A DNA stretch of 64,000 nucleotides from Escherichia phage vB_EcoS_FFH_1: the sequence record KJ190157. The stretch is one strand, 5' to 3'. The position numbers were made by a program, and so were the translations under genes. The notes beneath the pieces were generated by a model. It made no database searches and was not told the origin of the DNA. It worked only from the letters and a program-made list of their open reading frames with translations. How positions within the stretch are numbered: position 1 is the first letter of the stretch; each line of letters begins with the position of its first letter. Below are positions 4,678 through 58,966 of this stretch, one piece after another.

Positions 4678-4707
4678 AATCTAAAATTACAGCCGTTATA
4701 GGCCTAA

Positions 4708-4728: not shown

Positions 4729-4734
4729 TATTTA

Positions 4735-19440: not shown

Positions 19441-19450
19441 ATAAATGTAT

Positions 19451-19479
19451 TTGCTTTCAACTCAGTTTTGTTATATAAT
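19451..19479 (+). promoter_or_regulatory. early promoter TTGCTT-N17-TATAAT + ATTTATATAAATTGATGAGAG box (ligase A)
   Basis: -35 19451-19456, -10 19474-19479. Confidence 0.6.
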
Positions 19480-19510
19480 ATTTATATAAATTGATGAGAG
19501 ATACAAATAA

Positions 19511-37411: not shown

Positions 37412-39862
37412 TTAAACTTTCTCCCGCATTTGACTATCTGTTAATACTCTATTCCATATTCTAAGGTTTCGCACATGACCATATAATTTAGTTGAATCGG
37501 AGGGTCTTCCTCCTATCTCCAGCAAGGAATCCGGAGGTAGCCCTTCCCACGTTGAACCGGAGGATGTTATATTCTTAAGACCATTCAAAAACGATGTTAC
37601 ATCTCCATCTTTTGTATGAATGAACCCCCATATAGACGGGACACCTACCCCACTAAATGAAGATCCGTTCGATCCTATGGAGGTTCCAGTTTCTTTATTT
37701 AAAAAGTAAACGCTGGGAACCCTTGTACCTATGACAACTTCGGATACAAAAGATTCACCAGCAGTATTGTAACGGTTGTTATCAATTATCATCGGGTATG
37801 TATTATCCAATTGAAAGCTATCCCAGTTAGTGCTTACCTCAACAAGGAATGAAATGTTCAACCCTGAGAAATTATTTCTTGCGGGTATAGTAACATAATC
37901 TAGAGCCCTTGTTGCAGGAGTGCTTCCCGTAATAATGAAGGAGGATGCACAAAAACCCTTTTCAAATTGTGGAGTACAAAATGATATCGTGTCCCCAACT
38001 TGCACAGGTTGATCATTATTCCGACAATAATTTACAGATCCAATAGAACTACCTCCACGTTCTACAAATTTACACATAGCTTCAACTTTCAACCATCCGT
38101 TGTCTTCTCTATATATTCTATGTGCTATAGTCCCTCTCCCTTCTACTATAGAAGAAACTTCGCCGGTTTCGCAATTTATGAAAGATCTAGCGCCGAGAAT
38201 AAGACCCCCATCCTCACCTACTAAATAAAATTGTGGGGTGATATAGATATCCAAGTTTGCCTTTACTCGTATAGATAAAGAAACGTATTCATTTTGCTGA
38301 CAGTTGATTGCATTTACTGTTTCACAATAAAATAATGGGGGATACTCACCTTGTGACTTTTCGTTTGCTGTCGCCGTTGCATATGCAAAACCATACTTAT
38401 CGACATTATAAGTAACATCACTACGGTATTTATCTGTATTTAATGAAGCGGGGTCATTACTGAAAGTAATGTGATTTGTCCTCTGGCCCTCAATCAAGAG
38501 TCCTTGCTTTTCAAATCTAGGTTCATCGATATTAGCAATGCAAAATTCACCATGCTTATTTATGTATGTTGCATTTGACGCACGTGAGAAACTAACAACC
38601 TTATCAGAAGGCATTGTAATAACATCTGCACCAACTGTTATTTTCTTATAGCCGGGTGAGTAACCTGCTAGCATATCAAGCGAGTCATTAAATGGAATCC
38701 ATACGTCAGGGAATGGTTGAAGATCCGGAGCCCTGTTAGCTGCAATTTCCGCACGGTCTGCTTCTGCTTTTGCACGGTCTGCTTCTGCTTTAGAGCTGTT
38801 TGCACTACCAGCAGCATTGCTAGCTTGTTGCCCGGCCTCAATAGCACTATTACCAGCTTGTGTAGCAGAAGCAGCAGCTTGGTTTTTTAAAGCTGTTGTA
38901 TCAGATACCGCGCTATCCTTAATACCTTGTGTATCCGTTTTTAATTGCTCAACATCTGCTTTTAAAGTTGTTATCTCGGATACCGCGCTATTTTTAATGG
39001 CCTGGGTATCAGATTTTAACTGTTCTACATCCGCTTTTAAAGCTGTTGTCTCTGTTACAGCACTATTTTTAATGGCCTGGGTATCAGATTTTAACTGTTC
39101 GACATCTGATTTAAGTCCTTGAATAGCAGCTACAGATTGGCTGGCAGAAGTTGCAGATCCCGCAGCATTAGTTTCACTAGCCTTAGCTTTTGTTTCCGAG
39201 GTTTTTGCATTGGTTTCAGAGATTTTTGCCGCAGATGCCGATGCAGCAGCTTGCCCAGAAAATATTTCCGCCTCATTCCTAAAACCGCTAGAATCATCCG
39301 CTGATTGAGCTGCATTAGTCTCACTGACCTTTGCGTTACCCTCGCTAAGTTTTGCATCAGCCGCTGATTGAGCTGCATTAGTCTCACTTGCCTTTGCATT
39401 AGTCTCACTAATTTTTGCAGCAGCAGCTGATGCGTCAGCGTTAGTTTCACTAGTCTTTGCATTAGTTTCACTAGTCTTCGCATTAGCTTCACTAGTCTTC
39501 GAGTTAGTCTCGGATGTTTTAGCTGCGGCAGCGGATTCTGCAGACTTATTGGCTGATGCTGCAGACTGAGTAGCAGAAGTAGCTGATTGAGTAGCAGAAG
39601 CTTCTGAAGCTCCAGCGGAAATAGCAGCATCATTTTCAGATTCTTTAGCATTAAGTTCTGAGGTTTTAGCAGCTACTTCAGAATCTTTTGCAGCCGCAGC
39701 AGATTTAGCGGCGGCCTCTATAGAAGATACTAACTCATTAGCAGTAATAGAGCTAATAGAATTTCCAAGAGTTACTGTGTATCTAGGAAATTTACTAGCA
39801 GTAGTTTTAGTATCATCAATATTTAATATTTGTTGTACAATAATCTTAGTAGTTATTGCCAT
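37412..39862 (-). CDS. ltf: L-shaped tail fibre-like protein (proximal part) with fibre repeats and C-terminal LamG-like domain
   Basis: 816 aa; N-terminal repetitive SETNAK(T/A)SETN units, three 25-aa tandem repeats, C-terminal jelly-roll-like segment ending HVRNLRIWNRVLTDSQM. Confidence 0.7.
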   Translation of the reverse strand: MAITTKIIVQQILNIDDTKTTASKFPRYTVTLGNSISSITANELVSSIEAAAKSAAAAKDSEVAAKTSELNAKESENDAAISAGASEASATQSATSATQSAASANKSAESAAAAKTSETNSKTSEANAKTSETNAKTSETNADASAAAAKISETNAKASETNAAQSAADAKLSEGNAKVSETNAAQSADDSSGFRNEAEIFSGQAAASASAAKISETNAKTSETKAKASETNAAGSATSASQSVAAIQGLKSDVEQLKSDTQAIKNSAVTETTALKADVEQLKSDTQAIKNSAVSEITTLKADVEQLKTDTQGIKDSAVSDTTALKNQAAASATQAGNSAIEAGQQASNAAGSANSSKAEADRAKAEADRAEIAANRAPDLQPFPDVWIPFNDSLDMLAGYSPGYKKITVGADVITMPSDKVVSFSRASNATYINKHGEFCIANIDEPRFEKQGLLIEGQRTNHITFSNDPASLNTDKYRSDVTYNVDKYGFAYATATANEKSQGEYPPLFYCETVNAINCQQNEYVSLSIRVKANLDIYITPQFYLVGEDGGLILGARSFINCETGEVSSIVEGRGTIAHRIYREDNGWLKVEAMCKFVERGGSSIGSVNYCRNNDQPVQVGDTISFCTPQFEKGFCASSFIITGSTPATRALDYVTIPARNNFSGLNISFLVEVSTNWDSFQLDNTYPMIIDNNRYNTAGESFVSEVVIGTRVPSVYFLNKETGTSIGSNGSSFSGVGVPSIWGFIHTKDGDVTSFLNGLKNITSSGSTWEGLPPDSLLEIGGRPSDSTKLYGHVRNLRIWNRVLTDSQMREKV
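38885..39109 (-). repeat. three tandem 75-bp direct repeats inside the tail fibre gene
   Basis: units start at 38885, 38960, 39035; each encodes a 25-aa repeat (..DVEQLKSDTQAIKNSAV..TALKA). Confidence 0.8.
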
Positions 39863-42348: not shown

Positions 42349-45197
42349 TAAATGGATGCCCACTCCACAGACTGTTCTCCATCATCCCCTTCAGCCCTAA
42401 TACGAAAATACAATTTTCTATTTATACCTAGAGCACCACTGTTCTGGAGAGCAAAGTCTGCCTTATTATACGTTAATAAATAGTCATAAGTATACTGATT
42501 TTCAATACGTACACTTCTTAACATCCTATTTTGTGAATCGTGTATTTCAAGGGTATAAAATATACTCTCTATTATATCTTCTTCAGGTATTCTATCCCAG
42601 GCTAGTTTCACATCTGGGCCAACAAACTCAGTTACATCTCCGGAAGCAGTATTAGTTACCCTAAAATTAGATACTACACTAAGGTTTTTAGCAGAGTTAA
42701 GTTCTATAGACAGAGTCACCGGGGAACTTCTTCTACCATTAATATCTACTGCCCTTATCTCAAATATAGCCAGACCTGCTGGTTCTCCAATTATTTCTTG
42801 GATCATACGTTCGTTAGGGTTGGTCTCTAACTGTTGTACTATGTAAGGTTCGGCATGGCCTGAGTGCACGATAGAGTAATAAACTACATTATTGGTTAGA
42901 CTCGGAAGCCAGGATAACTCACCATTTTTACCTATAGAACCAACTAAGCCACCGGGTGTAGGAGTATACTTAAAATCTCTAGGAGGAAGAACATTGTTAC
43001 TAATATCTGGTATATCATTACCGCTATTATCAACCTGCTCAGAGTTAATGAATACATCTTCTCCATACTCCTGTAGAGTAACATTTATCTTACCCTCTCT
43101 AGAGTTTTCAACCTCATCAACTAGGAAATACTTTTTGTCCCATCCATAACGATCATATGTGAATGCAATAGCATCATTAGGCTCAATACCAATGAATTGA
43201 TATGGCAATGAGAAAGAAAGTGTTCTTGAGTATCTGGATTTCTTAAGTTCTCTATCCGCAAAACTTCTTGCAGTATAGTAATTAGTAATATTAGCAAAAG
43301 ATAGTTGTAATTTTTTATCCAGGTTCTTGTCCTGTTCCTTATACTTGGAGTTATAGAATGTAATGGAATTAGTTTTCCAGCTAAGGGCTGGGTCTACGAT
43401 AGATGCTTGAACTGAGTTGAATTTATTTCTACCAGTAGTATCTGATAGCTCCAAATCACCATAAGTATCTAGAAAATTAATCTCTAATGGAGTATTAGAG
43501 TATTTTTCTACAGTAACCCTGTACTGGCCAGATAAGTTGTTAATAGCCCCACCGTAGGACTCTAATAAACCTTGCACATTTTTAAATACTGATTCAGATG
43601 TATCCAGAATAGTATTCATTTGTACTATTTGTCTATTTTCTGCTAGTGGATCAGTCCACCCAACGTATCTCCAATATGGCTGCCAAGATACCTGATAGGA
43701 TTCATCTATAATATCTAAAATAGCTGCTTCCTGTATTAATTGCTGAAGGGGGAACTGATCAATGGTAATATTAGCGCCATATCTATCAGAGGTTAAGTAA
43801 TCAAGTGTTTGCCAAATACCATTTAAACTAGTACTATTAGCAGTTACTCTACCATCAGAATGATAGACTTTTACTTTTTTACCTTGAATTTCAGCACTAA
43901 CTTCAGGAATCTCAGTCCTATTTTCATTAATAGTGAAGCGCACCACTGCGTATGCAGTATCTAATAGTTTATACCTAGCATCCCAGTACTCCGGTCCATT
44001 GCCATTCATATTCTGAAGGTAGAACCCACGTTCTTTAGCTATATCTACTAGTACTTCAGAAGCCGTTTGATCAGATTTTCCATGATACGTCCAAATTCTT
44101 ATGTCACCATTACCATCATTATACTTATATTCCTGCCCATGCACGGAAGGACTACTAGAAGGTGTTCCTGACGCTATTCTTTGCATGGTGTCCCCAGCCA
44201 CTTTTTTAGTACCAAAGCAGGTTCTAGCGGAGCTATCATTAGCATCTACGCAGATCATAGGGTTATCACCAAAGGAGAAATCAAGAAAACCATCAATCTC
44301 CCCCTCAGCAAAGGCATATACGACATAAACTATGTTGGGATTGTGTAGTTCTGTATCAGCAAAAATGGGTATTCCAGGAATTTTTTGAACTCCATAAACC
44401 ACCGGTATGTATTTAGCAGCAAGGTTAAAATCTATATCCACTTCCTTAGTGACAGTTTCATAGTATTTTTTAAGGCTGTAGCTTCTAGATAAACCAAATA
44501 GCTTTTTCTTAGACTTTAGCTTGTATCTTTCTTCCTGTACCTGATATTTTGCTAGAATAGAGATACTTTTATTGGCATGAAAGAACCCATAATCTTCTTG
44601 GTATTCAAGTCTTTTAGCCCCGTTAGATGGAACTAACTGCCCTGCTACAACCTCAAGCCCTCTATGAGAAGCATCATCAGTAAATCTACCATTAACCCTA
44701 TCAAAATCATAGAACTGGTTAGAACAATTCCAAGTAATTGTGGATGTTCCAACCCCAGAAGTACTAATGTTGTCCTTAATACCACCACCGGTAATTCTTC
44801 CTCTAAAGTATAATAAAGGGCCATTTGTGTCTGGGTCTACCGGTAAAATAGAACCATCTTCTGTAATAATTGCTTGGTGGATTGATACTATTCTATCTAA
44901 AAAGGACACACCATTCTGCACTAATTTAAGTACTTCATCCTGCGCTGTACCTGTAATAGTAAAAGATAGACTGCCAATAGATAAATCTCTATTTTGTTTA
45001 TGTGTGCTAATGGACTTAACCTTACCGGCCTGGTACAAAATACCATTATATAGTACATCTCTAAAATAATCAGTTAAATAAATAAAAGCAGTACTAGTAC
45101 CAGTAGAGCCAGGTAATTCTAGGGAAATTAGACTAGCAGTTTTTATTCTGCTATTATTTTTTAAGTAGTTTCTAGCACTATCTAGTATTTTCTTCAT
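42348..45197 (-). CDS. baseplate hub protein (pb3-like)
   Basis: 949 aa, downstream of Dit-like gene with ATGA overlap; size equals T5 pb3 from memory. Confidence 0.6.
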   Translation of the reverse strand: MKKILDSARNYLKNNSRIKTASLISLELPGSTGTSTAFIYLTDYFRDVLYNGILYQAGKVKSISTHKQNRDLSIGSLSFTITGTAQDEVLKLVQNGVSFLDRIVSIHQAIITEDGSILPVDPDTNGPLLYFRGRITGGGIKDNISTSGVGTSTITWNCSNQFYDFDRVNGRFTDDASHRGLEVVAGQLVPSNGAKRLEYQEDYGFFHANKSISILAKYQVQEERYKLKSKKKLFGLSRSYSLKKYYETVTKEVDIDFNLAAKYIPVVYGVQKIPGIPIFADTELHNPNIVYVVYAFAEGEIDGFLDFSFGDNPMICVDANDSSARTCFGTKKVAGDTMQRIASGTPSSSPSVHGQEYKYNDGNGDIRIWTYHGKSDQTASEVLVDIAKERGFYLQNMNGNGPEYWDARYKLLDTAYAVVRFTINENRTEIPEVSAEIQGKKVKVYHSDGRVTANSTSLNGIWQTLDYLTSDRYGANITIDQFPLQQLIQEAAILDIIDESYQVSWQPYWRYVGWTDPLAENRQIVQMNTILDTSESVFKNVQGLLESYGGAINNLSGQYRVTVEKYSNTPLEINFLDTYGDLELSDTTGRNKFNSVQASIVDPALSWKTNSITFYNSKYKEQDKNLDKKLQLSFANITNYYTARSFADRELKKSRYSRTLSFSLPYQFIGIEPNDAIAFTYDRYGWDKKYFLVDEVENSREGKINVTLQEYGEDVFINSEQVDNSGNDIPDISNNVLPPRDFKYTPTPGGLVGSIGKNGELSWLPSLTNNVVYYSIVHSGHAEPYIVQQLETNPNERMIQEIIGEPAGLAIFEIRAVDINGRRSSPVTLSIELNSAKNLSVVSNFRVTNTASGDVTEFVGPDVKLAWDRIPEEDIIESIFYTLEIHDSQNRMLRSVRIENQYTYDYLLTYNKADFALQNSGALGINRKLYFRIRAEGDDGEQSVEWASI

Positions 45198-45808
45198 AAA
45201 CTTTCCCGTAAATTTAATGAGATGCCGGAATATGTTCCGTTATTATTTAATGTAGATCCGAAAGCATCACCATTCATGAGTTTTGTTCTAAATAGTATTC
45301 CGTTAAATACGGGTTTCTCAGCCCCAGTAGTAGTTATAAATAAATCAGGATATAAGTTTATAGACCACGTATTACCTGATTTATTGAATGATGTTATTTT
45401 ATATACTTTTGGATGGTTAGATAGCTTAAATAGATCCCCTGGTTTTGGAGTACCGATAAGAAGTCCTTTTGTATCCATAGTTATATTAGAACCCTTCTGT
45501 CCAGCAGGTATATTTACTAGACTAGTATTACCTCTAACTCTAAAAGCTTCGTATTGTGGTAATATAACATCTATATAACTACCAGTCCTTTTGTATTCTA
45601 GAATAAAAGCATCTAGAACATTATATTCATCTGGAAATAATTCTGGATAAGAAATATTTATACCCCAGTATTGAGCAGATACCTTAACTTCGTTAACTTT
45701 ACCATTTGGTAACTCATCACGAATTACTGGGTCATTATCAATCAGGTTAACACTTTCGAATCCTAATCCTGAAAGTTCTGGATTCGTGTATGGGTCTGGT
45801 AATCTCAT
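45194..45808 (-). CDS. distal tail protein (Dit, pb9-like)
   Basis: 204 aa immediately after tape measure gene; TTGATA-N17-TATAAT promoter upstream. Confidence 0.55.
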   Translation of the reverse strand: MRLPDPYTNPELSGLGFESVNLIDNDPVIRDELPNGKVNEVKVSAQYWGINISYPELFPDEYNVLDAFILEYKRTGSYIDVILPQYEAFRVRGNTSLVNIPAGQKGSNITMDTKGLLIGTPKPGDLFKLSNHPKVYKITSFNKSGNTWSINLYPDLFITTTGAEKPVFNGILFRTKLMNGDAFGSTLNNNGTYSGISLNLRESL

Positions 45809-45835
45809 AGTTAATTTCTCCTCTTTAATAACAAT

Positions 45836-45864
45836 ATTATAATAGTATTAGAAAATTTTATCAA
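45836..45864 (-). promoter_or_regulatory. sigma70-type promoter TTGATA-N17-TATAAT upstream of Dit/baseplate genes
   Basis: minus-strand -35 at 45864-45859, -10 at 45841-45836; just after tape-measure terminator. Confidence 0.45.
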
Positions 45865-45883
45865 GAAATTTTTATTTTTCCAT

Positions 45884-45911
45884 AAAGAAAAGGAGGACTC
45901 AAAGTCCTCCT
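45884..45911 (-). terminator. intrinsic terminator after tape measure gene
   Basis: GGAGGAC-TTTGA-GTCCTCC on minus strand followed by TTTTCTTT. Confidence 0.65.
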
Positions 45912-45917
45912 CCAGTT

Positions 45918-48900
45918 TTAAGAATTTCCTAATGTTTTCAGACTAGCACCGTTCTCATTCAGAGCTAATTCTACTGCGTCTCTTAGAGCACCACTATTAC
46001 TAGAAGCAAACTCTCTAAAACTTGCAGCATCCATAGCACTAATATTCAGGATGATAGGTCTTCCTGAAGTTGAGTTAGACGAGGTTTTTAGCTCATCATT
46101 AGGTGTAGCTTTCATAGGAACCATAGGGGTAACTACTTCTGTACCATGCTCACCCATTTGATAGCTAACCCCTGGATACATATTACCACCCTCAGCACGA
46201 GGAACGAAAGAGTTGGCACTACCTATACCTTGATCGCCACGAATATAAGATAGTTCACCTGCATTAGCAGACATGGACACATCTATATTCTTCTGACGCT
46301 CTCCTAAGGTTAAGTAACTAGTTGTATCCGCCCCAGAATCAGCAATACTTGACATACCAGATGCAGAAGATGCTTGTGCTAATGCCAATGCACCCGCTAA
46401 ACCTGCCGCAACCATTAAAGGAATAGAGAACGGGTATGGTACAGCTGTTGCCGCTTGCATTACAGCTACTGCAGTTTGGATGATAATCTGCTTCTTAGCT
46501 GCGTCTTGTTGAATCTTCAGCTTTTCAGCTTCCAACTTCTTCAACTTAGCTTTAGATGCTTCTGATTTACCATCACGTTTCTGTTCTGCTGCGATAGCTG
46601 CATCAATAGCACTAACCTGTTGACTAGTACTATACTGAATCATAGAAGATACAGTTTGCATGCCAGAAGCAATCAAGGAGGTAGTATCTAGGGATCCCTG
46701 AGAGAACTGGATCATAGCGTTAGTTAAGTTACCCATACTTTGAGCCACAGCGGTTGCTTCAGAATTTAATTCAGATAGCTTAGAGATTGCCTGATCATAA
46801 GAAGCCATTCTATTTTGCATATCTGCAAAATCTTTGTCTTCCCCCGATAGTCCAGTTGTAGGAGTGTACACAGCACCCACAGAAGATCCTACCTGTTGCT
46901 GCATTTGGCCTTCTCTTTGCTTTCTAAGTTGCTCTAGAGCAGCAGCAGTTTTATAGATCTCATTACGATACTTGATCTCTTCTTCGGTATTGCCCTTAGA
47001 TAGTTCTAGCTGTTCTTGCAAAACAGATAATCTTTCCGTAAGAATCTGAGCTTGGCCAGTAACATTTCTTTGTGTTTGGCTGACTTCTAGTGCATCCATG
47101 AGAGCTGATACATGTGAGGCAGTTGCCTGCTTCTCCGTTTCCCATAGTTCCCTACTTATTTGTGCTTGAGCACGTCTAGACTGTTCCGCCTCTTTCTGTT
47201 TGTCCGCTTGTTTTGTATACCATTCGTACTTCTCTTTCTCTACAGTTAGTTCTAGTTTTAGCTGAGCTAATCTATATTGAGTAGTAGTCATAGTACGGTC
47301 ATTCAGAAGAGCTATCTCACGATCTACACCAAGAATTTTATCTGTGTAATCCTTGACCTTCTTCTGAGCTTCCATACCCTGATTGGTAAGTTTAAGTTTC
47401 TCCAGCTGAATTTTTTCAATTTCTTTCTCAACAGCTTTATTCCCCTGGTTTGTTTGAAGAACACGGCGTAAAGCAGCTTCTTGCTCTTCTAACTGTTGCA
47501 ACTCTAAACGTCTACCAGCTTCCTGAGCCTTTTCCTTATCCTTAGTTTGAGTGTATACATCAGCTATCTTCTGTTGAACTGCTAACTGATTTTTAGTTTC
47601 ATTACCAGTTAGTTTAACATACTCAGATAGAGCCTGAGATGCAGTTTTCATTTCAGACAGGGTGTTATAACCCAGGTTAAGGTTTTTAACATACTCATCG
47701 GCACTCTTACCGGTACCTAAGGATAGAGATTCTATATTTTTTATAGCATCAGCTAAAGTGGCACTAGTTTTAGCCGCAGTATCTGTATTCTGAGCAACGT
47801 TCTGTATATCATTAGCTAAGTCACTAGCAGTTTTCTTAGTTTGATTATACGCTTTCTGTTGTTCAGTTAGTCCTTTTAATACTGTGGAGTTAAAGTCATA
47901 TACAGCACCAGGATCAGTAGTATCCCTCTGTAGATTAATTTGCTTCTGAAACTCTGGACTAGCCTTTGCAGCAGCGGCCCCAGCAGCTTGATACGCTGAT
48001 TTCCAAGCATTGAGATTCTCTGTAGAATCCTCTACTTCCTTACCAAGTCTAGTTACTTGTAGACCCATAGCTGCAGTTTCTGCTACAAATTGCTTATTGG
48101 CCTCCGAAGCACCTGCTGCTGCAAGACCAACAGGAATACCTTCACCAACTTGACGTATAGCTAGTTTTGTATAGAAATCTGCTTGTTCCATTCGTTTATC
48201 GAACTCAGATTTTAGCTTATTACGCTTATCAAGAGATTCCTTATACATATCTAGAGCTTTATTATACCCTTCTTCAGAAGCGGCTAAACTTAAAGCAACA
48301 GCACCAACGTTGGTAGGATCTATCTGTCTATTAGTTTTTTCTTGAGCTCTAGCTGCTTCAGCAGATACAGAAGCCTGAGAAGTATAAAATACTGTGTTGA
48401 TAGCATCAATTACGGGCCCTAAGTATTTAGCAGCAGCCTGCTGAATCTTTCTCAGTGCGGCATCAGCATTAGCGGCAAATTGCTCCCACGGAGTAGCACG
48501 TAAAACTTCATCTAAGTAGCCAAAACGTTTAGTAGACTCTGCTATAACAGCATTAGCATACGCCTGCTGTTTCTGGAAAGTAGTAAGGCTGTTAATATTA
48601 TATGTTATACCTGTGTTTGCAGCATTTAACTGCTTAACGTAATCAGCATAAGCATCATTAAGACGAATAGTAACACCAAGTTCATCCAGAAGTTCGATTT
48701 CTTGTTTAGATACACCCTTAATTACACGGTTAAGTGCATCAGTCATATCAACGCCAAGAACAGCAGCAGCACGACGAGCTACTAAACCAAATTTATTAAG
48801 TTGTTCGGCGTCAAATCCATAAGCGGACGCTGAGGATGCTTGCCTCATAGCTTCTTCAAAAGAGATTGCATAGCCAGCTGCCTCTTGTAGTGATCTAGCA

Positions 48901-49598
48901 AGGGACTGAACAGGAGTACCTGTCTGAGTACCTACTATAACACCAAATTTTTCTAGACGATTTAGCTGATCACCTAGTTTAAGTTGCTCGAATGCAGATT
49001 GCAAAACGAAGATGTTGGAAGCAAGAGCTGCGTACATAATAGGTAAACTACCACCGATCTTAGCCATTGCTGCAAAATCACGAGTTGCACCGCGTGCCGA
49101 ACCAGAAGTATTACCGATAGCTCTGGAAGCTCTTCCAGCAGCACCAGTAGTATCATTAAAGCCCTTAGCTGTACCACCTAAAGCTCTATTAGTATCGTAT
49201 AACCTATCTTGAACTTTCTCTGTTGCAGCTGCAACATCATTGCCCATTGTTTTAACAGATCTAGAAACTCCATCGAATCCAACTTCTAGTTTATCTGCTA
49301 CTTCAATCATTGTAATAGCTAGGTCATCCAGCTTAGTCCCTATATCATTAATAGATTTAGTAATACTAAGCATGCCCCTACTAGCCTGCATTTTAGTAAG
49401 ACTTTTCGCTGCTCTATCTGCTGCCCTCTCAATGGAATAAAGAGTTCTGGGCATTTTACCTAACTGCTCATTTGTCAGTTCGGAAGCAGCAGCAGCATTT
49501 TCCAACGCATCAGATACGTTTTCAATAGACTTTGCAGTACGAGTTGCCCCCTTCTGTTTAACGTCTATTAGTAATTCTCGTATTAGCTTATCAGTCAT
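45918..49598 (-). CDS. tail tape measure protein (pb2-like)
   Basis: 1226 aa, long helical/coiled-coil stretches, Ala/Gln-rich, hydrophobic segment near C-terminal third; between chaperone-sized ORFs and Dit. Confidence 0.85.
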   Translation of the reverse strand: MTDKLIRELLIDVKQKGATRTAKSIENVSDALENAAAASELTNEQLGKMPRTLYSIERAADRAAKSLTKMQASRGMLSITKSINDIGTKLDDLAITMIEVADKLEVGFDGVSRSVKTMGNDVAAATEKVQDRLYDTNRALGGTAKGFNDTTGAAGRASRAIGNTSGSARGATRDFAAMAKIGGSLPIMYAALASNIFVLQSAFEQLKLGDQLNRLEKFGVIVGTQTGTPVQSLARSLQEAAGYAISFEEAMRQASSASAYGFDAEQLNKFGLVARRAAAVLGVDMTDALNRVIKGVSKQEIELLDELGVTIRLNDAYADYVKQLNAANTGITYNINSLTTFQKQQAYANAVIAESTKRFGYLDEVLRATPWEQFAANADAALRKIQQAAAKYLGPVIDAINTVFYTSQASVSAEAARAQEKTNRQIDPTNVGAVALSLAASEEGYNKALDMYKESLDKRNKLKSEFDKRMEQADFYTKLAIRQVGEGIPVGLAAAGASEANKQFVAETAAMGLQVTRLGKEVEDSTENLNAWKSAYQAAGAAAAKASPEFQKQINLQRDTTDPGAVYDFNSTVLKGLTEQQKAYNQTKKTASDLANDIQNVAQNTDTAAKTSATLADAIKNIESLSLGTGKSADEYVKNLNLGYNTLSEMKTASQALSEYVKLTGNETKNQLAVQQKIADVYTQTKDKEKAQEAGRRLELQQLEEQEAALRRVLQTNQGNKAVEKEIEKIQLEKLKLTNQGMEAQKKVKDYTDKILGVDREIALLNDRTMTTTQYRLAQLKLELTVEKEKYEWYTKQADKQKEAEQSRRAQAQISRELWETEKQATASHVSALMDALEVSQTQRNVTGQAQILTERLSVLQEQLELSKGNTEEEIKYRNEIYKTAAALEQLRKQREGQMQQQVGSSVGAVYTPTTGLSGEDKDFADMQNRMASYDQAISKLSELNSEATAVAQSMGNLTNAMIQFSQGSLDTTSLIASGMQTVSSMIQYSTSQQVSAIDAAIAAEQKRDGKSEASKAKLKKLEAEKLKIQQDAAKKQIIIQTAVAVMQAATAVPYPFSIPLMVAAGLAGALALAQASSASGMSSIADSGADTTSYLTLGERQKNIDVSMSANAGELSYIRGDQGIGSANSFVPRAEGGNMYPGVSYQMGEHGTEVVTPMVPMKATPNDELKTSSNSTSGRPIILNISAMDAASFREFASSNSGALRDAVELALNENGASLKTLGNS

Positions 49599-49612
49599 GT
49601 TTTATTTTTCCC

Positions 49613-49646
49613 AATAAAAAAGGCTCTGGGCAAATCACCCAGAGCC
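49613..49646 (-). terminator. intrinsic terminator immediately upstream of tape measure start
   Basis: GGCTCTGGG-TGATTTG-CCCAGAGCC on minus strand followed by TTTTTTATT. Confidence 0.65.
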
Positions 49647-49681
49647 AAGCCTCATCGTGGAACGCCCATTGGAGGAAACTT

Positions 49682-50050
49682 TTACCGTGCACGAGATCTA
49701 GCATGTGGCTTAACGTTAGGAATCCTTCCGTTTTGCGGTTTATGCTTCTCAGCACGTTTACGTGCAGCATCTACAGCTTTAGCATCAAATATATTGATAA
49801 TGTGTAGAACAAATTCTTTCTCTATAGGATCAGTAATCCCATAAATATCAAATAAAACACCTAGAGCAGCCTTATCTTTACCTATAAAGATAGGAAAGTC
49901 ACCTGGTATGAAGCAGTCAATTAGACTGTTATAAATATTCATACTAGTAGCTACAATAGGTGGAAAGTCTTCAAGTTCAACAGGCATGGCCTTAGGATCA
50001 GGCTCTATACCCATTGATTCACAAAGTATTAAATATTGTTGTTTAGTCAT
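49682..50050 (-). CDS. hypothetical tail-module protein (122 aa), possible tail assembly chaperone
   Basis: Position directly upstream of tape measure gene; basic C-terminus. Confidence 0.4.
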   Translation of the reverse strand: MTKQQYLILCESMGIEPDPKAMPVELEDFPPIVATSMNIYNSLIDCFIPGDFPIFIGKDKAALGVLFDIYGITDPIEKEFVLHIINIFDAKAVDAARKRAEKHKPQNGRIPNVKPHARSRAR

Positions 50051-50111
50051 TTTAGATGCTGAGCTTTTAATACACTTATCTGCAAAATCAGCAACAGCAT
50101 CTAGGAGTTCT

Positions 50112-50531
50112 TTACGCTTTTGGGCTACGAAAAGTGTCTAAGTGGAACACTGTCTGGTTGATCCAAGAATCAAACGCAGCAGAGTTCTGCATGAGCATTA
50201 TAGCATTATCGCGGCTAAAAGGAACTTCAGTAGCAGGATCAGCATCTGTTTCAATCAGCATCAGTTTTTCAACGTCACCTACAGTCAAACCGGTCCAACC
50301 TTTAATAGCTGCGTCAACGAAGGCTTCAATGAACTTATCATCATCCTGTACCTGAATCAAAGTACCATTAACCCATTCATCGCGTTTAGCAGAAGAAATA
50401 ACACGTTTAGAGGTAGCACGAGACATATAGTTAAGTTCTAATTTAAAGTTCGGCATACCTGGGTAGGAAAGAGTAATAGTACGAGTATCAAGAGTAATAT
50501 CTTTTAAATTAATCATTTTTAATTTCTCCAA
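50112..50531 (-). CDS. hypothetical tail-module protein (139 aa)
   Basis: ORF between tail tube and tape measure genes. Confidence 0.4.
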   Translation of the reverse strand: MEKLKMINLKDITLDTRTITLSYPGMPNFKLELNYMSRATSKRVISSAKRDEWVNGTLIQVQDDDKFIEAFVDAAIKGWTGLTVGDVEKLMLIETDADPATEVPFSRDNAIMLMQNSAAFDSWINQTVFHLDTFRSPKA

Positions 50532-51411
50532 AGAAATCTATTCTCACTGGGTCTGAAGAAGCAGTAGGTATAATATCCCACTCAACTCTATACACATCTG
50601 AGAAATCTAGGCGTTTTGTAATACGTGCTGAAGGAAAATCTATAGAAATATTATTATTTCTTATATTTAAAGGTACATCTGTCTCCGGTTCGATATTGTA
50701 AACCATACCTCCTGCAAAACGTTTTAAGTAATATAGAGAAATGGTTGCCGAAGCATTCATTTCATTTACATAAGCTCTTTTATTATTATAAATTTTATTT
50801 ATATCAAAAACACTCTTATCCTCTCTCCAGGAGCACTGCTGTTGGAAAGATAAAGAGGCAGAAATAAGACCGGGTAAGATGCTGCCATTAGTAGAAGCTA
50901 TTACTGGGCTGTAAGACATTACTTCACCCTGTATAATAGAAGCTGCTTCTCTATAGGTAGATACTTCTGAGAATTTCCCAGACTCAATACCAACATTAAG
51001 AATTGGTATGTTCTTATCTAAAGAAAAATCTACCGTAGATACATAACAGTTTTCAAAATATACACAGTTATTATCTTTATTTACTATATAGATATTGAAC
51101 ATAATAGGTTCAATATTACTACTATATAGTGGGAGTAAGAAAGTATTACCTTTTCTATCAAAACCTAACCATTCAAAGAAGTTAGCCTCTGTAAGAGTAT
51201 TACTGAAATTTATTGCTAGAGAGATAGAAGAGGGGGTTTGAGCATTTATAATAGAGTCTGCATAGTTAGTTCTACGATGAACAGTCCTACGAAGAGTCTT
51301 GAATTCCTCGTAGGAAGTCTGTATATCATAGTTTGATAGGGCATCAAAATGAAATGCCCTACCATCATACTCAACTATAACTTTTGACTCTCGCATTAGA
51401 GAGTAGTACAT
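50509..51411 (-). CDS. hypothetical tail protein (300 aa)
   Basis: ORF immediately after tail tube gene. Confidence 0.4.
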   Translation of the reverse strand: MYYSLMRESKVIVEYDGRAFHFDALSNYDIQTSYEEFKTLRRTVHRRTNYADSIINAQTPSSISLAINFSNTLTEANFFEWLGFDRKGNTFLLPLYSSNIEPIMFNIYIVNKDNNCVYFENCYVSTVDFSLDKNIPILNVGIESGKFSEVSTYREAASIIQGEVMSYSPVIASTNGSILPGLISASLSFQQQCSWREDKSVFDINKIYNNKRAYVNEMNASATISLYYLKRFAGGMVYNIEPETDVPLNIRNNNISIDFPSARITKRLDFSDVYRVEWDIIPTASSDPVRIDFFGEIKND

Positions 51412-51415
51412 TTAT

Positions 51416-52822
51416 TTAACCACCAGCACTAACTGTGATAGTTTTAGTACCTTCTACACCAGAACCGTCTTTAGCTACAGCCTTCACAGTAACTGCACCA
51501 GTTTTAGAAACATCAGCAGTTAATAGTCCAGATTCTGCGTCAATCGTAGCTGCGTTACCACTAGAAATAGACCAAGTTACAGCCTTATTAGTAGCTTCTG
51601 GAGGTGTTACCTCAACAGACATCTGTAAAGTATTACTATTTGTTACAGAAACAGCTTCACCTGCTGATTTAACTGTAATGGATTTAACGGGAACTGGAGG
51701 AGTTTTAGCACCATCCCCCGTAGCAATCAGATTAGCTACAGTAGTTTTTGTATACTTATTAGAAAATCCAAGATAACCTTCGTCACCAGTATCCAAATCA
51801 GTAGGAATAGCTTTAAACTCTACTGAAGTACCAAGTACATCATCAGTCTCAATAGTAGGGATATTAACGTGCGCCTGTTTAGCAACTAACACAGCTGCCG
51901 GACGTTCCTCGTCATATTCTCCACCCAAAATAAGTGCGATTTCAAAACGGTTAACTACCTTAAGGGTTTTAATCAGATCTTTGTACAGTTCCATAGAACC
52001 AAGAGACTTATCATTAAGGTATGCTGTCAAAGAACCCGTTAACTCAAACGCACCCGTAAATGAGCCGATTGGAATATTTACACGTGACATAATATTCGGG
52101 GTTAGGTACGTGATGTTGTTATTAATGGTAAAAGTACCACCAGTAATAGGAATATCATATGCCTTATCAGAATCCATATCCTTAATTTTTAGGATAGTTA
52201 ACTTGTTCTTAATGTAAGAACTCTGAATAGTCATATAAGTTTCATCATCAATACCTAATGCATCAGGGTCAAATGGTTGGCTATCTAACGGAATGAGCTG
52301 ATTACCGTTACCAGACCAAGTTACACGACCAATATCTTCAATATCAACGTTAACTTCTGCCTGGTTGATCTGGCAAGAGTCAATGTAACTCCACGCATTG
52401 TCAGTTAGAATGTAAATATGCAGCATAGCCAGTTCGTGATATGCGTTATCTTTGAAGTTAACCATGAAGTTAGTAGCATTATTATGTGCTCCAGTATTTC
52501 CCTCAAGATTAATAGCTTTACCACTAGAAAGTGCATGCCATAACATATAGTCAGGAACAATTTGTTTGCTAGTAGTTTTATCCTTGTAGGGCAGGATATA
52601 GGTGGAGAAGCTCCACTCAGCCGCATTCAAGGAATCGTTAAAACGTTTAGAACCACGAGTAGGACGCGGACCAGCTTCATTAACAGTAATATCTGTTGAG
52701 TTACTGTCCTGACCCCAAGAAATATCATCCTGAACTAGAATCTCTTGCGTGTTGGTCTTATTATGACCAGTCTTAACCGTAGACACGAAGATTCGAGTAT
52801 TACGTAATAGTTGTAAAGACAT
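51416..52822 (-). CDS. major tail tube protein with C-terminal Ig-like (Big_2-type) domain (pb6-like)
   Basis: 468 aa; AGGAG SD; C-terminal ~90 aa VKSITVKSAGEAVSV...KAVTWSISSGNAATIDAESGLLTA...TVKAVAKDGSG typical of Big_2 Ig-like domains. Confidence 0.7.
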   Translation of the reverse strand: MSLQLLRNTRIFVSTVKTGHNKTNTQEILVQDDISWGQDSNSTDITVNEAGPRPTRGSKRFNDSLNAAEWSFSTYILPYKDKTTSKQIVPDYMLWHALSSGKAINLEGNTGAHNNATNFMVNFKDNAYHELAMLHIYILTDNAWSYIDSCQINQAEVNVDIEDIGRVTWSGNGNQLIPLDSQPFDPDALGIDDETYMTIQSSYIKNKLTILKIKDMDSDKAYDIPITGGTFTINNNITYLTPNIMSRVNIPIGSFTGAFELTGSLTAYLNDKSLGSMELYKDLIKTLKVVNRFEIALILGGEYDEERPAAVLVAKQAHVNIPTIETDDVLGTSVEFKAIPTDLDTGDEGYLGFSNKYTKTTVANLIATGDGAKTPPVPVKSITVKSAGEAVSVTNSNTLQMSVEVTPPEATNKAVTWSISSGNAATIDAESGLLTADVSKTGAVTVKAVAKDGSGVEGTKTITVSAGG

Positions 52823-52848
52823 TTAATTATTTTCTCCTAATCTGTAAC

Positions 52849-53334
52849 TTATCTGCGAAGTGACCTACGTGGAGGCTGATACCTCACTGTTACATTTATT
52901 TCTGCTAAACCATATGGGGCCAGTAGACCCTCATCTGTACTAACTGATGTAATGCTCATATCAGTCGCCTCACATGGGAAGGTCGATCCATTAGGTTTAC
53001 TAACAGTATATTCTAAATTTCCACCTGTGTCAATAACGGTTTTTATATCCGCTACGAGTTTTTCAAGTTGCTCTTGAATGTCTGTTTTCTCTTTATCGTA
53101 TACCAGGATAGGAAGTTCTAAAAACATCCACTGTTGACCTGAGGGAAGATACTGCCCAGTTTCAGTTCCGATATGAACTGCAACATAAGGAAACTCTCGT
53201 ATCTCCTCAAACTTATAAGTTTGACGTGAGACGTTTCCATACAAGTTATTAAAATATTCATCTGGTTGGGAGCCATCCATTTGTTTGGCTATTCGATCAA
53301 CCAGAGCTTGTGCTATACTTGTTCTGTGATCCAT
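52849..53334 (-). CDS. head-tail joining / tail completion protein (161 aa)
   Basis: Position between capsid and tail tube genes. Confidence 0.4.
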   Translation of the reverse strand: MDHRTSIAQALVDRIAKQMDGSQPDEYFNNLYGNVSRQTYKFEEIREFPYVAVHIGTETGQYLPSGQQWMFLELPILVYDKEKTDIQEQLEKLVADIKTVIDTGGNLEYTVSKPNGSTFPCEATDMSITSVSTDEGLLAPYGLAEINVTVRYQPPRRSLRR

Positions 53335-53337
53335 TTA

Positions 53338-54105
53338 TTAGGTTCCTTGATTAACCTTAATTTTGTATCTGGAGTGAATTAAGTCTCTTGCAGCTTTAGC
53401 TATCGCCTCTCCAATTAGTCTTTGAGGGTTTCTAGCACCTGGGTAGGGTCGTAATGACAATCTTCGATATGTGGATACTGCAGGATTAAATACTGAATAT
53501 GGACGTACCATATAATTATATGTAACATTTAATTCAGGAGCACCTTTGCTAGTTCCAGCATCTCTAAGCATAACATCTTTAACTTTTAGAGAATTTGCAA
53601 AACGACCTGTTCTAAATTTAAGTGGAGCTCCTGCTTTTTTCATATCCTTTATTAAGTATTCTTTAGCAACCAATTCCAGAATAACCTTCATATTACTATT
53701 TGATACAAAACGACCAGAAGCACCTGTTACTGCACCAGAATATCCGTCTTCTACGTCTCTAGGATCCCCAAAGTTTACTTGAACCCTACCAGTAGAACGT
53801 TTTTTACCTACAGAGGATTTTTTACCAGCGGTTGCTTGAATAAGACTTTCTAAAGCACCTAAATCTCCAGAAAGATCTAAACTAGAGGATACAGCTTTTA
53901 ATATAGAAGCTGTTCTAATGTTAAGTAGATCTTGTGATACAGGTTTTGAGAATTTAAAAGATACCTGAGCAACAGTACCATCTCTAGTAGGATCTTTCAG
54001 TCCTGTTTCAACAAAGTATACAACAGTATTCTTATTGTTCTCGGAACGCCCAACATTATCTAGCTGCTCCTTAATAATTTGTGTAGCTAAATCAGAAAGA
54101 GACAT
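53338..54105 (-). CDS. head-tail joining protein (255 aa)
   Basis: Position in neck-gene block. Confidence 0.4.
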   Translation of the reverse strand: MSLSDLATQIIKEQLDNVGRSENNKNTVVYFVETGLKDPTRDGTVAQVSFKFSKPVSQDLLNIRTASILKAVSSSLDLSGDLGALESLIQATAGKKSSVGKKRSTGRVQVNFGDPRDVEDGYSGAVTGASGRFVSNSNMKVILELVAKEYLIKDMKKAGAPLKFRTGRFANSLKVKDVMLRDAGTSKGAPELNVTYNYMVRPYSVFNPAVSTYRRLSLRPYPGARNPQRLIGEAIAKAARDLIHSRYKIKVNQGT

Positions 54106-54617
54106 TATACTCTCCTGTAAACTTCAATAATAGTACGAATATGCTCTGGAATACCAGACTTAGTATTATTAAAAGTAACTGTTTCTCCGCCAATTGTTTT
54201 AGCTTGACGGTAATCCTGTTTGTGCCAATGATCTACTAGCATACATGCTGCAAGTTTGAGATCCTCAGGTATTGGATTAAATCCACCTTGTGTGTATTCT
54301 ATATCCATATAACCTTCTGGAGGGTTAAATTTAAGAAGTATAACCCCATCAGAATACAACCTATACTGTTCGGGATCTATCTCCTTGTCGTTAATAGTCA
54401 TTTTGGTTACTGAAGTAGCCGAGGGAGAACTTAAGAAGTATTTTTTACGAGTAGGTTTTGTATTGATTAACTGGTCTACCGCATCAGCATCATCCATACC
54501 TAAAAGGCTAGTAATCAGCGCATTGGCAGCAGTAATCATCATCTCTACTCCCGATTCTAGTTCAGGTCGTTTTAACCCGCCATATAATCTATAGTCTTCA
54601 GCTGTGATTATTTGCAT
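54105..54617 (-). CDS. head completion / connector protein (170 aa)
   Basis: First gene after capsid-gene terminator; ATGA-type overlap with next gene. Confidence 0.45.
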   Translation of the reverse strand: MQIITAEDYRLYGGLKRPELESGVEMMITAANALITSLLGMDDADAVDQLINTKPTRKKYFLSSPSATSVTKMTINDKEIDPEQYRLYSDGVILLKFNPPEGYMDIEYTQGGFNPIPEDLKLAACMLVDHWHKQDYRQAKTIGGETVTFNNTKSGIPEHIRTIIEVYRRV

Positions 54618-54628
54618 TTATTTTTCCC

Positions 54629-54657
54629 AATAAAAAAGGAGAGCCGAAGCTCTCCTT
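54629..54657 (-). terminator. intrinsic terminator after major capsid gene
   Basis: AGGAGAGC-TTCG-GCTCTCCT on minus strand followed by TTTTTTATT. Confidence 0.7.
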
Positions 54658-54676
54658 ATCGGCTGAAAAGCCTGTA

Positions 54677-56053
54677 TTAAGATGCAGCGTAAGCACCAGA
54701 TACAACACCATTACTAAAGTAACGTTGCAGGTTAACACGCTGAGTAACATAGTATGCATCACGCTGTTTACCAGCTTGACGCTCACGTTCAACAGTAACA
54801 GCACGCTGACGTGGCATTACGAAGTTATCTTTATAAACGATAACTGCGAACTCTTTATCAGCAGCTTTAGCTGGGAAGTACTCAGAAACTACAACCGGCA
54901 GACCGTAAATACGACCAACCTGACCCTGTAGTTTAACAGCATCATTACCAACCTGGGCAACATCCTGCCATTCTTCATCTTCCAGCAGATCGTAGTAAGC
55001 ATCCATAGATACGATCAGTACTAGTTTGCTCAATTTCAGACCATGACGGCCCAGTTTACGACGCAGTTTAGAGATAGTTTTAGCAGTTACCAGTACGGAA
55101 CCATCAGCTTTAGCTTCAGTAGTAACTTTAGCACTATCTTCACTAGCCAGAGTCAACAGACCTTTCGGCTGACCCGTACCATTACCAGTCATAAACGCTT
55201 CTTCGATAGAAACAGCATGTGCTTCGATCAGACGCTTACGCAGCAGAGGCAGCAGGGAGAAGATTGCATCTTCTTCAGTTTCGTCAGTGATGAAGGACTT
55301 AGCAGCCAGCTTGTAAGTTTTGAAGCTGATTTCAGTCAGGGCACCTTTAACTTCGTCACCAACAGTTTCGTCAGTACCAAATTTGGAAGCATCTACCCAA
55401 GTAGCTTTTCCAGCTTCTGGTTCAACGAGCATAGTAAGAATTTTGCTGGACATTGGCAGTTCATCGAACAGTGCACCAACTACTAATTCTTTCTGCAGAT
55501 CACGGATAATACGGGTGGAGAAGATAGTTTCGTATGCTTCGCTAGACATAGAAACGGAAGAAGAACCATTGACAGCCTTAACGTGGGCTTTACCATGTTC
55601 AGTTTCGAATACGTCCTTCTCCATCATATAAGACAGAAGAACTAGTTTTTCAACTTCATCTTCAAAAGCTTCCTGAGTACCGTATAGTGCTTTAGCTACG
55701 CTATCACCGACGAAGGAACGTCCTTCACGAGCTGCCAGCAGAGATTTGATTTCGTCCTGAAGACCAACAATAGTTTCCTGCTGCTTTTCTACAGTCTGTG
55801 CGAACAGTTCTGCACTCTTTTTAGATTTTTCATCCAGGGACTTAACCAGTTCCAGAGCTTCTTCTAGCTTCTGACGATCTTCGCCAACTGCTTTAGAAAC
55901 CAGATCATTCATACGAGCCAGTTCTTTTTCTTCCTGCTCTTTGCGCATACGTTCAGCTTCAGCAGCTTTCTGAGCAGCGGTCAGACCTTCCAGAGATTTA
56001 GCCAGATCACCCAGACCAAGTTCTTCTTTCAGCTTATTAATATCAATAGTCAT
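54677..56053 (-). CDS. major capsid protein with N-terminal scaffolding (delta) domain (pb8-like)
   Basis: 458 aa; first ~150 aa is a charged coiled coil (KLKEELGLGDLAKSLEGLTAAQKAAEAERMRKEQEEKE...), then globular domain; follows prohead protease gene; strong terminator downstream. Confidence 0.85.
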   Translation of the reverse strand: MTIDINKLKEELGLGDLAKSLEGLTAAQKAAEAERMRKEQEEKELARMNDLVSKAVGEDRQKLEEALELVKSLDEKSKKSAELFAQTVEKQQETIVGLQDEIKSLLAAREGRSFVGDSVAKALYGTQEAFEDEVEKLVLLSYMMEKDVFETEHGKAHVKAVNGSSSVSMSSEAYETIFSTRIIRDLQKELVVGALFDELPMSSKILTMLVEPEAGKATWVDASKFGTDETVGDEVKGALTEISFKTYKLAAKSFITDETEEDAIFSLLPLLRKRLIEAHAVSIEEAFMTGNGTGQPKGLLTLASEDSAKVTTEAKADGSVLVTAKTISKLRRKLGRHGLKLSKLVLIVSMDAYYDLLEDEEWQDVAQVGNDAVKLQGQVGRIYGLPVVVSEYFPAKAADKEFAVIVYKDNFVMPRQRAVTVERERQAGKQRDAYYVTQRVNLQRYFSNGVVSGAYAAS

Positions 56054-56070
56054 TTTTAAATAATTCTCCG

Positions 56071-56703
56071 TTATTCTTTAACGTAGCCTAAAGCTATCGC
56101 AAGTTTTTCTAGTTCAGAAAGATTACGTTCTTGAGCTGGGACAGCTTTAGAACTTATTGCAGTAAAAGATTTACGCCATTCAGTATAATCATGACCATTC
56201 ATGCTCTTAGCGAGATTGAACGTTGAGTCCTGATTACAAGGTACAGAAACTACCGAAACTTCGTATAGCTCTAAATCTTTAATAATAAATATATCAGTAG
56301 CTTCATCCCACTCTGCATCCAGGCAGCGGAATCCGATACTAAAAGTTTTCAGTACACCGTTTTTAATTAGTGAAAAGATAGCCGGGTCAGAACTTTCATA
56401 GATCTCGCATTCGATTTCGAGACCCATTTCAGTAGGGTTAAGATCAATACACTTACCGATTGGACGACGATGATCGTGTCCGAAAAGAATAATCGGGTTT
56501 TTCATATAGTTAGTAAGTGCATTAGATGTTTTCCATGCGGAAGCAGGGATTACATCGCCAGCGCGATCTTTACTAATTGTATTAGCGAATCCACGTATTT
56601 TTACAACGCCCTCTTTGGATTCACTATCAATAGATTTAATATAAGCATCTAAATGAACGGGTGCTGATTTTAACTTGTTATAGTCAATAGCAGCTTGTGT
56701 CAT
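56071..56703 (-). CDS. prohead maturation protease (pb11-like)
   Basis: 210 aa between portal/decoration genes and capsid gene. Confidence 0.65.
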   Translation of the reverse strand: MTQAAIDYNKLKSAPVHLDAYIKSIDSESKEGVVKIRGFANTISKDRAGDVIPASAWKTSNALTNYMKNPIILFGHDHRRPIGKCIDLNPTEMGLEIECEIYESSDPAIFSLIKNGVLKTFSIGFRCLDAEWDEATDIFIIKDLELYEVSVVSVPCNQDSTFNLAKSMNGHDYTEWRKSFTAISSKAVPAQERNLSELEKLAIALGYVKE

Positions 56704-58852: not shown

Positions 58853-58966
58853 AGTGTTCTCCTCAACTGTATGAATATAGTATACATAATCGTATCGAAT
58901 TTGTAAAGGGGATTTTAAAATACAGGAATGGGATACCAACTGAGTAGTATCCCATCCTATACTTAT

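Follow-up and report, generated by a model that had tools for sequence, protein, structure and literature searches.

The near-identical sequence that follows strong hairpins and leads into two late-gene starts of this phage is very probably a composite, in which the tail of an intrinsic terminator abuts a weak ribosome-binding site (RBS), with leaky terminators and weak Shine-Dalgarno (SD) sequences holding the encoded proteins low. The sequence comparisons show how the junctions are built and conserved, that orthologues substitute other SD sequences, and that the two halves can be separated; partial termination and a tuning of expression are inferred. The three terminators and the promoter PG25 are already annotated in T5, and terminators are annotated in related records as well; such designs, a terminator after a capsid gene or a weak SD in an A/U-rich leader, are familiar. 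In the late operons, two leaky terminators and weak RBSs likely hold low-copy proteins far below the capsid and tail tube proteins. For annotation, the lesson is that a repeated "motif" beside hairpins may prove to be a terminator tail joined to a low-complexity RBS.

Genomic setting and the three copies

By database comparison, the window (the whole 64-kb stretch of DNA that was analyzed) comes from a T5-like phage; positions 45000-56500 are 97% identical to Escherichia phage SP15, and over 500 T5-like members of the family Demerecviridae match this region as well. Late structural genes are encoded on the minus strand (Table 1). The gene downstream of the major capsid gene had been called a connector gene in the initial annotation; it is instead a head completion gene, whose 170-aa product matches the Pfam HCP model end to end (residues 2 to 170; E value in Table 1). 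The start codons of the head completion and tape measure genes are annotated identically at the orthologous starts in other records.

A 23-nt repeat, CCTTTTTTATTGGGAAAAATAAA, follows a strong hairpin on the minus strand at 49623-49601 (site 1) and at 54639-54617 (site 2), and an 83% copy is present at 45893-45871 on the same strand (site 3). These three copies were also returned as one family (D10; length of 23 nt; 100%, 100%, and 83% identity) by an unbiased repeat search. At site 1, the hairpin is followed by TTTTTTATTGGGAAAAATAAAAC and then by the tape measure ATG; the 21-mer TTTTTTATTGGGAAAAATAAA occupies positions 49621-49601, and AC separates it from the ATG (49598). At site 2, TTTTTTATTGGGAAAAATAA stands between the hairpin and the head completion ATG, and the same 21-mer, at 54637-54617, ends in an A that is also the A of that ATG. 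At site 3, the hairpin (45913-45889) is followed by TTTCTTTATGGAAAAATAAA. Coordinates and sequences thus agree with the earlier description of a hairpin plus a near-identical sequence at two gene starts and a variant at a third. The motif had also been placed directly before the ATG in both cases; this holds for site 2, but at site 1 the AC intervenes.

The repeat is real. The exact 21-mer occurs twice in the 64 kb, compared with a mean of 0.02 occurrences in 100 dinucleotide shuffles, none of which contained two or more copies. Among T5-like contigs, a 17-mer core was confined to the contexts of sites 1 and 2, with 25 hits in each; in other viral contigs, nearly all hits fell within coding sequence. 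With two exact copies in the window, and with the T5-like hits all at the two junctions, we rejected a dispersed genome-wide motif; the sequence is not scattered over unrelated positions.

Table 1. Late-region features discussed in the text, in the order of minus-strand transcription
Feature	Position	Strand	Details
Major capsid gene	54677-56053	minus	
Site 2 intrinsic terminator hairpin (predicted)	54636-54657	minus	AAGGAGAGC-TTCG-GCTCTCCTT; as RNA, AAGGAGAGC-UUCG-GCUCUCCUU
Site 2 U-tract	54629-54637	minus	TTTTTTATT; first two T also close the stem
Site 2 RBS (predicted)	54618-54628	minus	Weak SD GGGA (54628-54625) plus spacer AAAATAA
Head completion gene	54105-54617	minus	170 aa; Pfam HCP, E = 8e-80
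Two neck and tail-completion genes	Between head completion and tail tube genes	minus	
PJ5-type promoter	53033-53005	minus	Heads the block of tail tube, minor tail, and chaperone-type genes
Tail tube protein gene	51416-52822	minus	
Minor tail protein gene, then two small chaperone-type genes	After tail tube gene	minus	
T5.142-like chaperone gene	49682-50050	minus	Second of the two chaperone-type genes; upstream of site 1 hairpin
Conserved 35-nt noncoding element	49647-49681	minus	AAGTTTCCTCCAATGGGCGTTCCACGATGAGGCTT; from chaperone stop to site 1 terminator
Site 1 intrinsic terminator hairpin (predicted)	49622-49646	minus	GGCTCTGGGTGATTTGCCCAGAGCC; as RNA, GGCUCUGGG-UGAUUU-GCCCAGAGCC; as DNA, GGCTCTGGG-TGATTT-GCCCAGAGCC; after second chaperone-type gene
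Site 1 U-tract	49613-49621	minus	TTTTTTATT
Site 1 RBS (predicted)	49599-49612	minus	Weak SD GGGA (49612-49609) plus spacer AAAATAAAAC
Tape measure gene pb2	45918-49598	minus	1226 aa
Site 3 intrinsic terminator hairpin (predicted)	45889-45913	minus	After tape measure gene
Site 3 tail (motif "variant")	45865-45888	minus	U-tract TTCTTTAT, then GGAAAAATAAAAATTTC
PG25-type sigma-70 promoter core	45836-45864	minus	TTGATA-17-TATAAT; 11/12 consensus positions
Strong SD of distal tail gene	45823-45818	minus	GAGGAG
Distal tail protein gene	45194-45808	minus	ATG at 45808

Terminator tail and ribosome-binding site

The three hairpins have folding energies of -19.1 (site 1), -14.7 (site 2), and -15.8 (site 3) kcal/mol, with z-scores against shuffled sequences of -5.4, -4.4, and -3.2, respectively; at each of them, none of 200 shuffles folded as well. 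They begin 35, 19, and 4 nt after the upstream stop codon and are the sole strong terminator-like hairpins within the minus-strand late block. Terminators are annotated at all three orthologous sites in the T5 record (AY543070) and at the same three places in the HdH2 record. The tract TTTTTTATT is near-invariant among the sampled enterobacterial genera of Demerecviridae, the only change being one T fewer in the My1-like L027, and at site 3 the U-tail TTTCTTTAT lies immediately 3′ of the stem. We therefore read TTTTTTATT as the predicted U-tract of a rho-independent terminator. A search of the literature found no 3′-end mapping data for T5-like late transcripts.

Pairing in the site 1 stem is maintained by compensatory changes. 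The two arms read GGCTCTGGG/CCCAGAGCC in the window, GGCCTAGGG/CCCTAGGCC in a Klebsiella phage, and GCTCTAGGCG/GCGTCTAGAGC in a Proteus phage, with three pairs altered on both sides and pairing kept; compensatory changes also keep the stem paired in a Providencia phage. The site 2 stem is near-invariant and mostly uninformative for covariation, with the exception of L009 and L018 (AAAGAGAGC/GCTCTCTTT). A fourth hairpin, at 35303-35275, is a bidirectional terminator where the late region meets convergent plus-strand genes.

The second half of the element, GGGAAAAATAA(AAC), appears to consist of a weak SD core, GGGA, and a spacer that is A-rich, unstructured, and reaches to the ATG. The distance from GGGA to the ATG is 7 nt at site 2 and 10 nt at site 1. 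Pairing of GGGA with the anti-SD is worth -4.2 kcal/mol, whereas most late genes reach about -6 to -11.6 kcal/mol, and GGGA is among the weakest SDs of the late genes. The two starts had been described as lacking a canonical SD; the SD is indeed short and weak, but it is not absent.

We compared the junctions at 29 T5-like loci covering all three sites. The intergenic junctions were near-invariant across these loci and better conserved than the neighboring coding ends. Some phages carry ATTAGGAAAAATAAATG or TTGGAAAAATAAATG at site 2, with the common core GGAAAAATAA. At site 1, the bases before the ATG vary among close relatives (AC, AT, TT, or none), as does the length of the A-run, which is the behavior of a spacer. 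In distant relatives, the GGGA position at sites 2 and 1 is occupied, respectively, by AGAGG and GGA in L025 and by GGAG and GAGG in the My1-like L027 (both Pectobacterium-phage-like), by GGGT and GGA in Klebsiella phage Torridgeon, by GGGT and AGGTGA in Proteus phage PM135, by GGGA and GGA in Providencia phage PR1, and by AGGAGG at both sites in Vibrio phage D361. The spacer up to the ATG contained only A and T in all distant relatives compared. Since other SD variants take the place of GGGA and are followed by A/T-only spacers, we conclude that this is a Shine-Dalgarno position.

The two halves are separable. In T5, the 250-aa gene T5.141 sits exactly between TTTTTTATT and the GGAAAAC of pb2, and this insertion marks the U-tract and the RBS as separate modules. 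T5 (AY543070) otherwise resembles the window, with orthologous features at pb8/T5.148, T5.142/pb2, and pb2/T5.139 and near-identity at sites 2 and 3; because site 1 is split by T5.141, there is one intact 21-mer in T5, whereas there are two in the window. The T5 record annotates the hairpins and the promoter and does not mention the shared tail sequence.

An unusual initiation region coupling termination to reinitiation had been one of the functions proposed for the motif. The initiation regions do abut terminators, but they contain ordinary weak SDs. The two ATGs are separated from the preceding stop codons by a stable hairpin and by distances of 59 and 83 nt, so that ribosomal coupling across sites 1 and 2 is unlikely. 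A processing site had been suggested as well; nothing speaks for it, and the earlier interpretation as a whole finds only partial support. In weak-SD, A/U-rich leaders, upstream U-rich tracts are thought to aid ribosome binding via S1. The window is like such leaders in its GGGA, its adjoining upstream U-tract, its unstructured A-rich spacer, and its normal ATG spacing; it is unlike them in that the U-tract doubles as a terminator tail, a property by which these leaders are not defined.

The head completion and tape measure genes have no promoter of their own between terminator and start codon, and hence they would be expressed only by read-through; with essential genes reachable in no other way, the terminators must be leaky. 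We propose that the terminators act as attenuators. At site 2, which follows the gene for the most abundant virion protein, transcript levels would drop once the major capsid gene has been passed; at site 1, they would drop behind the block transcribed from the PJ5-type promoter. The weak SD would further cut translation of the head completion and tape measure genes, and the reduced output would fit the low virion copy number of these two proteins; the low-copy argument is weaker for the genes that share the transcript downstream of the head completion gene. After site 3, PG25 would restart transcription for the distal tail genes. In phage T7, the T-phi terminator, which follows capsid gene 10, is an internal attenuating terminator. 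The likeness lies in a strong intrinsic terminator right after the capsid gene and in essential downstream genes that need read-through. Unlike T7, the window phage would depend on the host sigma-70 RNA polymerase rather than a phage polymerase, and the RBS of the next cistron begins immediately after the U-tract.

Conservation and mobile genes at the junctions

Two observations are not accounted for by a terminator tail and an RBS: the near-identity of the site 2 hairpin and tail beside a protein that is only 31% identical, and the 23 identical bases at sites 1 and 2. The two elements may be overlaid by some constraint on the sequence itself or by gene conversion. In a 10.9-kb alignment of five divergent genomes (55 to 65% overall identity to the window), the site 2 hairpin and U-tract formed the most conserved 25-mer of the module, with 96% invariant columns compared with a background of 29.5%. 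At site 2, Providencia phage PR1 matches the window without a difference over 46 nt. From the hairpin through to the ATG, Proteus phage PM135 differs at a single position, even though it is the phage whose head completion protein has only 31% identity.

A second conserved stretch adjoins the site 1 terminator. This 35-nt element (Table 1) contains CCUCC, is conserved across genera, is single-copy, and is found in T5-like contigs only; together with the terminator it would form a 3′-UTR-type RNA. Single-base indels in close relatives, together with stop codons and frames that differ across genera, rule out that the element is coding. We also rejected a role as a small-RNA seed, since the best duplex with a start in the window reached -24.6 kcal/mol and the mean best value for shuffled sequences was -24.8 kcal/mol. 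In a covariation test on the element, most columns were invariant.

Such conservation would be expected if the hairpin and tail were the recognition site of a trans-acting factor (an antiterminator, a translational repressor, or a processing or stabilizing nuclease site), with the sequence itself under selection, and the bases common to sites 1 and 2 and the element beside the site 1 terminator point the same way. We nevertheless consider this unlikely. The peak of conservation spans the hairpin and TTTTTTATT, not GGGAAAAATAAA; GGGAAAAATAAA is swapped for other SDs in L025, L027, and the Vibrio phage; and the site 1 stem covaries rather than being fixed. Rfam gave no match at E values up to 1 across 45000-56500 on both strands, and no candidate factor emerged. 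The short stem of site 2, capped by cUUCGg, may simply tolerate few changes. We give similarly little credence to the two internal terminators being sequence-specific regulatory RNAs or phage-factor sites; the 23-mer might, in addition, be a landing site for the T5orf172/CapR mobile genes.

Homologous genes have been inserted at both junctions. The insert at site 1 is T5.141 of T5, which interrupts the motif itself; in L009, L018, and L020, the inserts adjoin site 2. T5.141 and the site 2 inserts are 36% identical (E = 3e-34), and the family carries CapR, treble-clef zinc finger, and T5orf172/GIY-YIG-like domains. The site 2 junction is altered in all three insert-bearing genomes, compared with a variant in the GGG region in 1 of 25 genomes without an insert. 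In the My1-like L027, both junctions have changed in parallel, to TTTGGAGTAA and TTTGAGGTAA. These patterns are consistent with the 23-mer being kept or exploited as DNA, either as the landing or cleavage target of free-standing mobile endonuclease-like genes or as a gene-conversion tract, which we nonetheless regard as improbable, more so than selection by a trans-acting factor. Mobile genes often come to rest in whatever intergenic gap is permissive, the altered junctions are explicable as the co-converted flanks of a divergent donor, and the inserts go back to only two or three separate events. Both the endonuclease activity and its target are putative, and a target-site role would not explain the original conservation. 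In addition, the junctions were already alike in the ancestor of several genera, which speaks against recent conversion. For specialists, the deep conservation of site 2, the 35-nt element, and the related mobile genes at both junctions may deserve attention.

The third copy and promoter PG25

In the T5 record, the P-G25 feature begins at ATGGAAAAATAAAAATTTCTTGATA and takes in the site 3 tail, and in the window AAAAATAAAAATTTC lies directly upstream of the site 3 -35 hexamer. An AAAAATT block near -43 is typical of T5-like promoters (AKFV33 genome paper, PMC3326045), and the site 3 copy shares this feature (AAAAATAAAAATTTC compared with AAAAATT). Sites 1 and 2 also have an A-rich run, but without promoter hexamers downstream. 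Divergent relatives keep the A-tract before the -35 hexamer but not the GG; L025 and L027 still have the tract, which is weaker in other relatives. We interpret GGAAAAATAAAAATTTC as the A/T-rich -43 (UP-like) block of PG25. Site 3 would then resemble sites 1 and 2 because a terminator tail and an A-rich promoter upstream block combine there, and the function of this copy differs from that of the other two. Late transcripts from PG25 and PJ5 have been detected in T5 by primer extension (Klimuk et al., PMC7472727), and the same authors state that every class of T5 genes depends on sigma-70 RNA polymerase for its transcription (PMC7472727).

A late promoter had been another function suggested for the motif. 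This survives for the third copy only, and indirectly, through the -43 block of PG25. A role for the motif at each of the three sites, as a late promoter or as an upstream element of one, is suggested by the presence of the site 3 variant within the annotated P-G25 fragment and by the 75% similarity of sites 1 and 3 over 36 nt (family D17), with CTGATAA at site 1 and TTGATAA at site 3. However, the ATG follows the motif by 0 to 2 nt at sites 1 and 2, so that a promoter using the motif as its upstream part would start transcription inside the gene. A consensus scan of the roughly 20 nt available between hairpin and ATG found no -35/-10 pair at either site, and we therefore rejected a promoter there; no acceptable -10 is present, the best at site 1 being TAATAG, which lacks the final T. 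Moreover, the sigma-70 promoters that serve the late genes of T5 have normal hexamers (PMC7472727), and the T4-type TATAAATA box is absent from the motif. A promoter role at all three sites is thus very improbable.

A structural translational operator, in which the U-tract pairs with the A-rich spacer (UUUAUU with AAUAAA) to form a small hairpin with GGGA in its loop, is the least credible possibility: the isolated tails do form such a fold, placing GGGAAA in the loop (-2.3 and -1.5 kcal/mol), and the rearranged T5 pb2 leader can fold at -4.2 kcal/mol with AGG in the loop, but a U run beside an A run pairs trivially, the predicted pairing partners vary between lineages, and the 16 junction variants (-0.3 to -8.2 kcal/mol) were no more stable than shuffles, 11 to 74% of which were at least as stable for every variant. 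We rejected this hairpin.

The same sequence also occurs outside the T5-like phages. In L076, a 42.6-kb marine siphovirus contig related to Pseudoalteromonas siphoviruses, a different terminator is followed by the identical 24-mer TTATTGGGAAAAATAAATG and then by a tape measure gene. No homology was detected between the two tape measure proteins (E = 0.05), and common descent was rejected; the match is convergence or chance. The same 24-mer before a nonhomologous tape measure gene suggests that this low-complexity solution can arise independently.

Conserved sequences at sites 1 and 2

Across five divergent genomes (L159, L160, L162, and the Pectobacterium-phage-like L025 and L027), the most highly conserved 25-mer of the 10.9-kb module running from the capsid gene to the distal tail genes was the hairpin and U-tract of site 2, the terminator junction before the head completion gene. 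Invariant columns made up 96% of this 25-mer versus 29.5% for the background, and no part of the capsid gene was as highly conserved.

At site 1, the junction before the tape measure gene, the chaperone gene and the terminator are separated by a 35-nt element that is conserved from Tequintavirus to phages of Klebsiella, Proteus, and Providencia. It is present in one copy only, is restricted to T5-like contigs, and contains an anti-Shine-Dalgarno-like CCUCC. Single-base indels exclude a coding role for this element. An Rfam search gave no match for it, a covariation test yielded nothing informative, and a target search gave no signal.

The sequence CTTTTTTATTGGGAAAAATAAATG also follows a terminator hairpin in L076, a 42.6-kb contig from an unrelated marine siphovirus. 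The L076 hairpin is different, and the sequence after it is identical. The tape measure gene that comes next encodes a 639-amino-acid protein with relatives in Pseudoalteromonas phages; homology of this protein to T5 pb2 was not detectable.

Locations of the features described in this part
Feature	Location	Strand	Remarks
35-nt noncoding element, AAGTTTCCTCCAATGGGCGTTCCACGATGAGGCTT	window 49647-49681	minus	between chaperone stop codon and site 1 terminator
Site 2 hairpin and U-tract 25-mer, AGAGCTTCGGCTCTCCTTTTTTATT	window 54629-54653	minus	
Terminator, then CTTTTTTATTGGGAAAAATAAATG, then tape measure gene	L076 9511-9560	minus	L130 listed alongside
T5.141, mobile-type insert at site 1	L158 (T5 locus) 4281-5030		
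Mobile-type insert beside site 2	L009 7578-8150		
Mobile-type insert beside site 2	L020 7546-8145		
Mobile-type insert beside site 2	L018, position as in L009 and L020		
Palindrome and hairpin before site 2 insert	L009 about 7500-7577; L018 and L020 at same position		
Strong sigma-70-like promoter, TTGACA-17-TATACT	window 53005-53033	minus	inside tail terminator gene
Strong terminator, then directly T5-type promoter, TTGCTT-17-TATAAT	window 19406-19480	plus	early region

Mobile-type genes at sites 1 and 2

Homologous genes of a free-standing mobile type are present as insertions: T5 has one at site 1, and three other phages each have one next to site 2. The genes inserted at the two sites share 36% identity (E = 3e-34), and their domains are CapR, a treble-clef zinc finger, and a T5orf172/GIY-YIG-like domain. 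All three genomes with an insert beside site 2 have an altered site 2 junction, and L008 has a junction of the L020 type with no insert. We also observed, 5′ of each site 2 insert, a small G+C hairpin of its own together with a long perfect palindrome (e.g., TATATTATATTAGTATGACGTCATACTAATATAATATA). Such an arrangement may have a role in regulation of the insert or in its recombination.

Promoters and repeats

The promoter within the tail terminator gene is the counterpart of P-J5 annotated in T5; the tail tube gene lies about 180 nt downstream, and across genera its −35 region ranks with the best-conserved stretches. The early-region terminator and promoter have the same order as those of site 3, the junction before the distal tail genes.

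A 13-pair minus-strand hairpin lacking a proper U-tract, GGATGGGATACTACTCAGTTGGTATCCCATTC (window 58926-58957), overlaps the TTG start listed for a 174-amino-acid open reading frame at 58939, a start that is doubtful. A minus-strand gene of the late region contains in-frame tandem repeats at window positions 38740-39600; these belong to several families (D1-D6 of the repeat search), and their periods are 21, 63, and 75 nt. One T5-like phage, L021, has a 105-nt segment in duplicate: the segment lies close to the tape measure gene's 5′ end, and its second copy is at positions 13436-13540.
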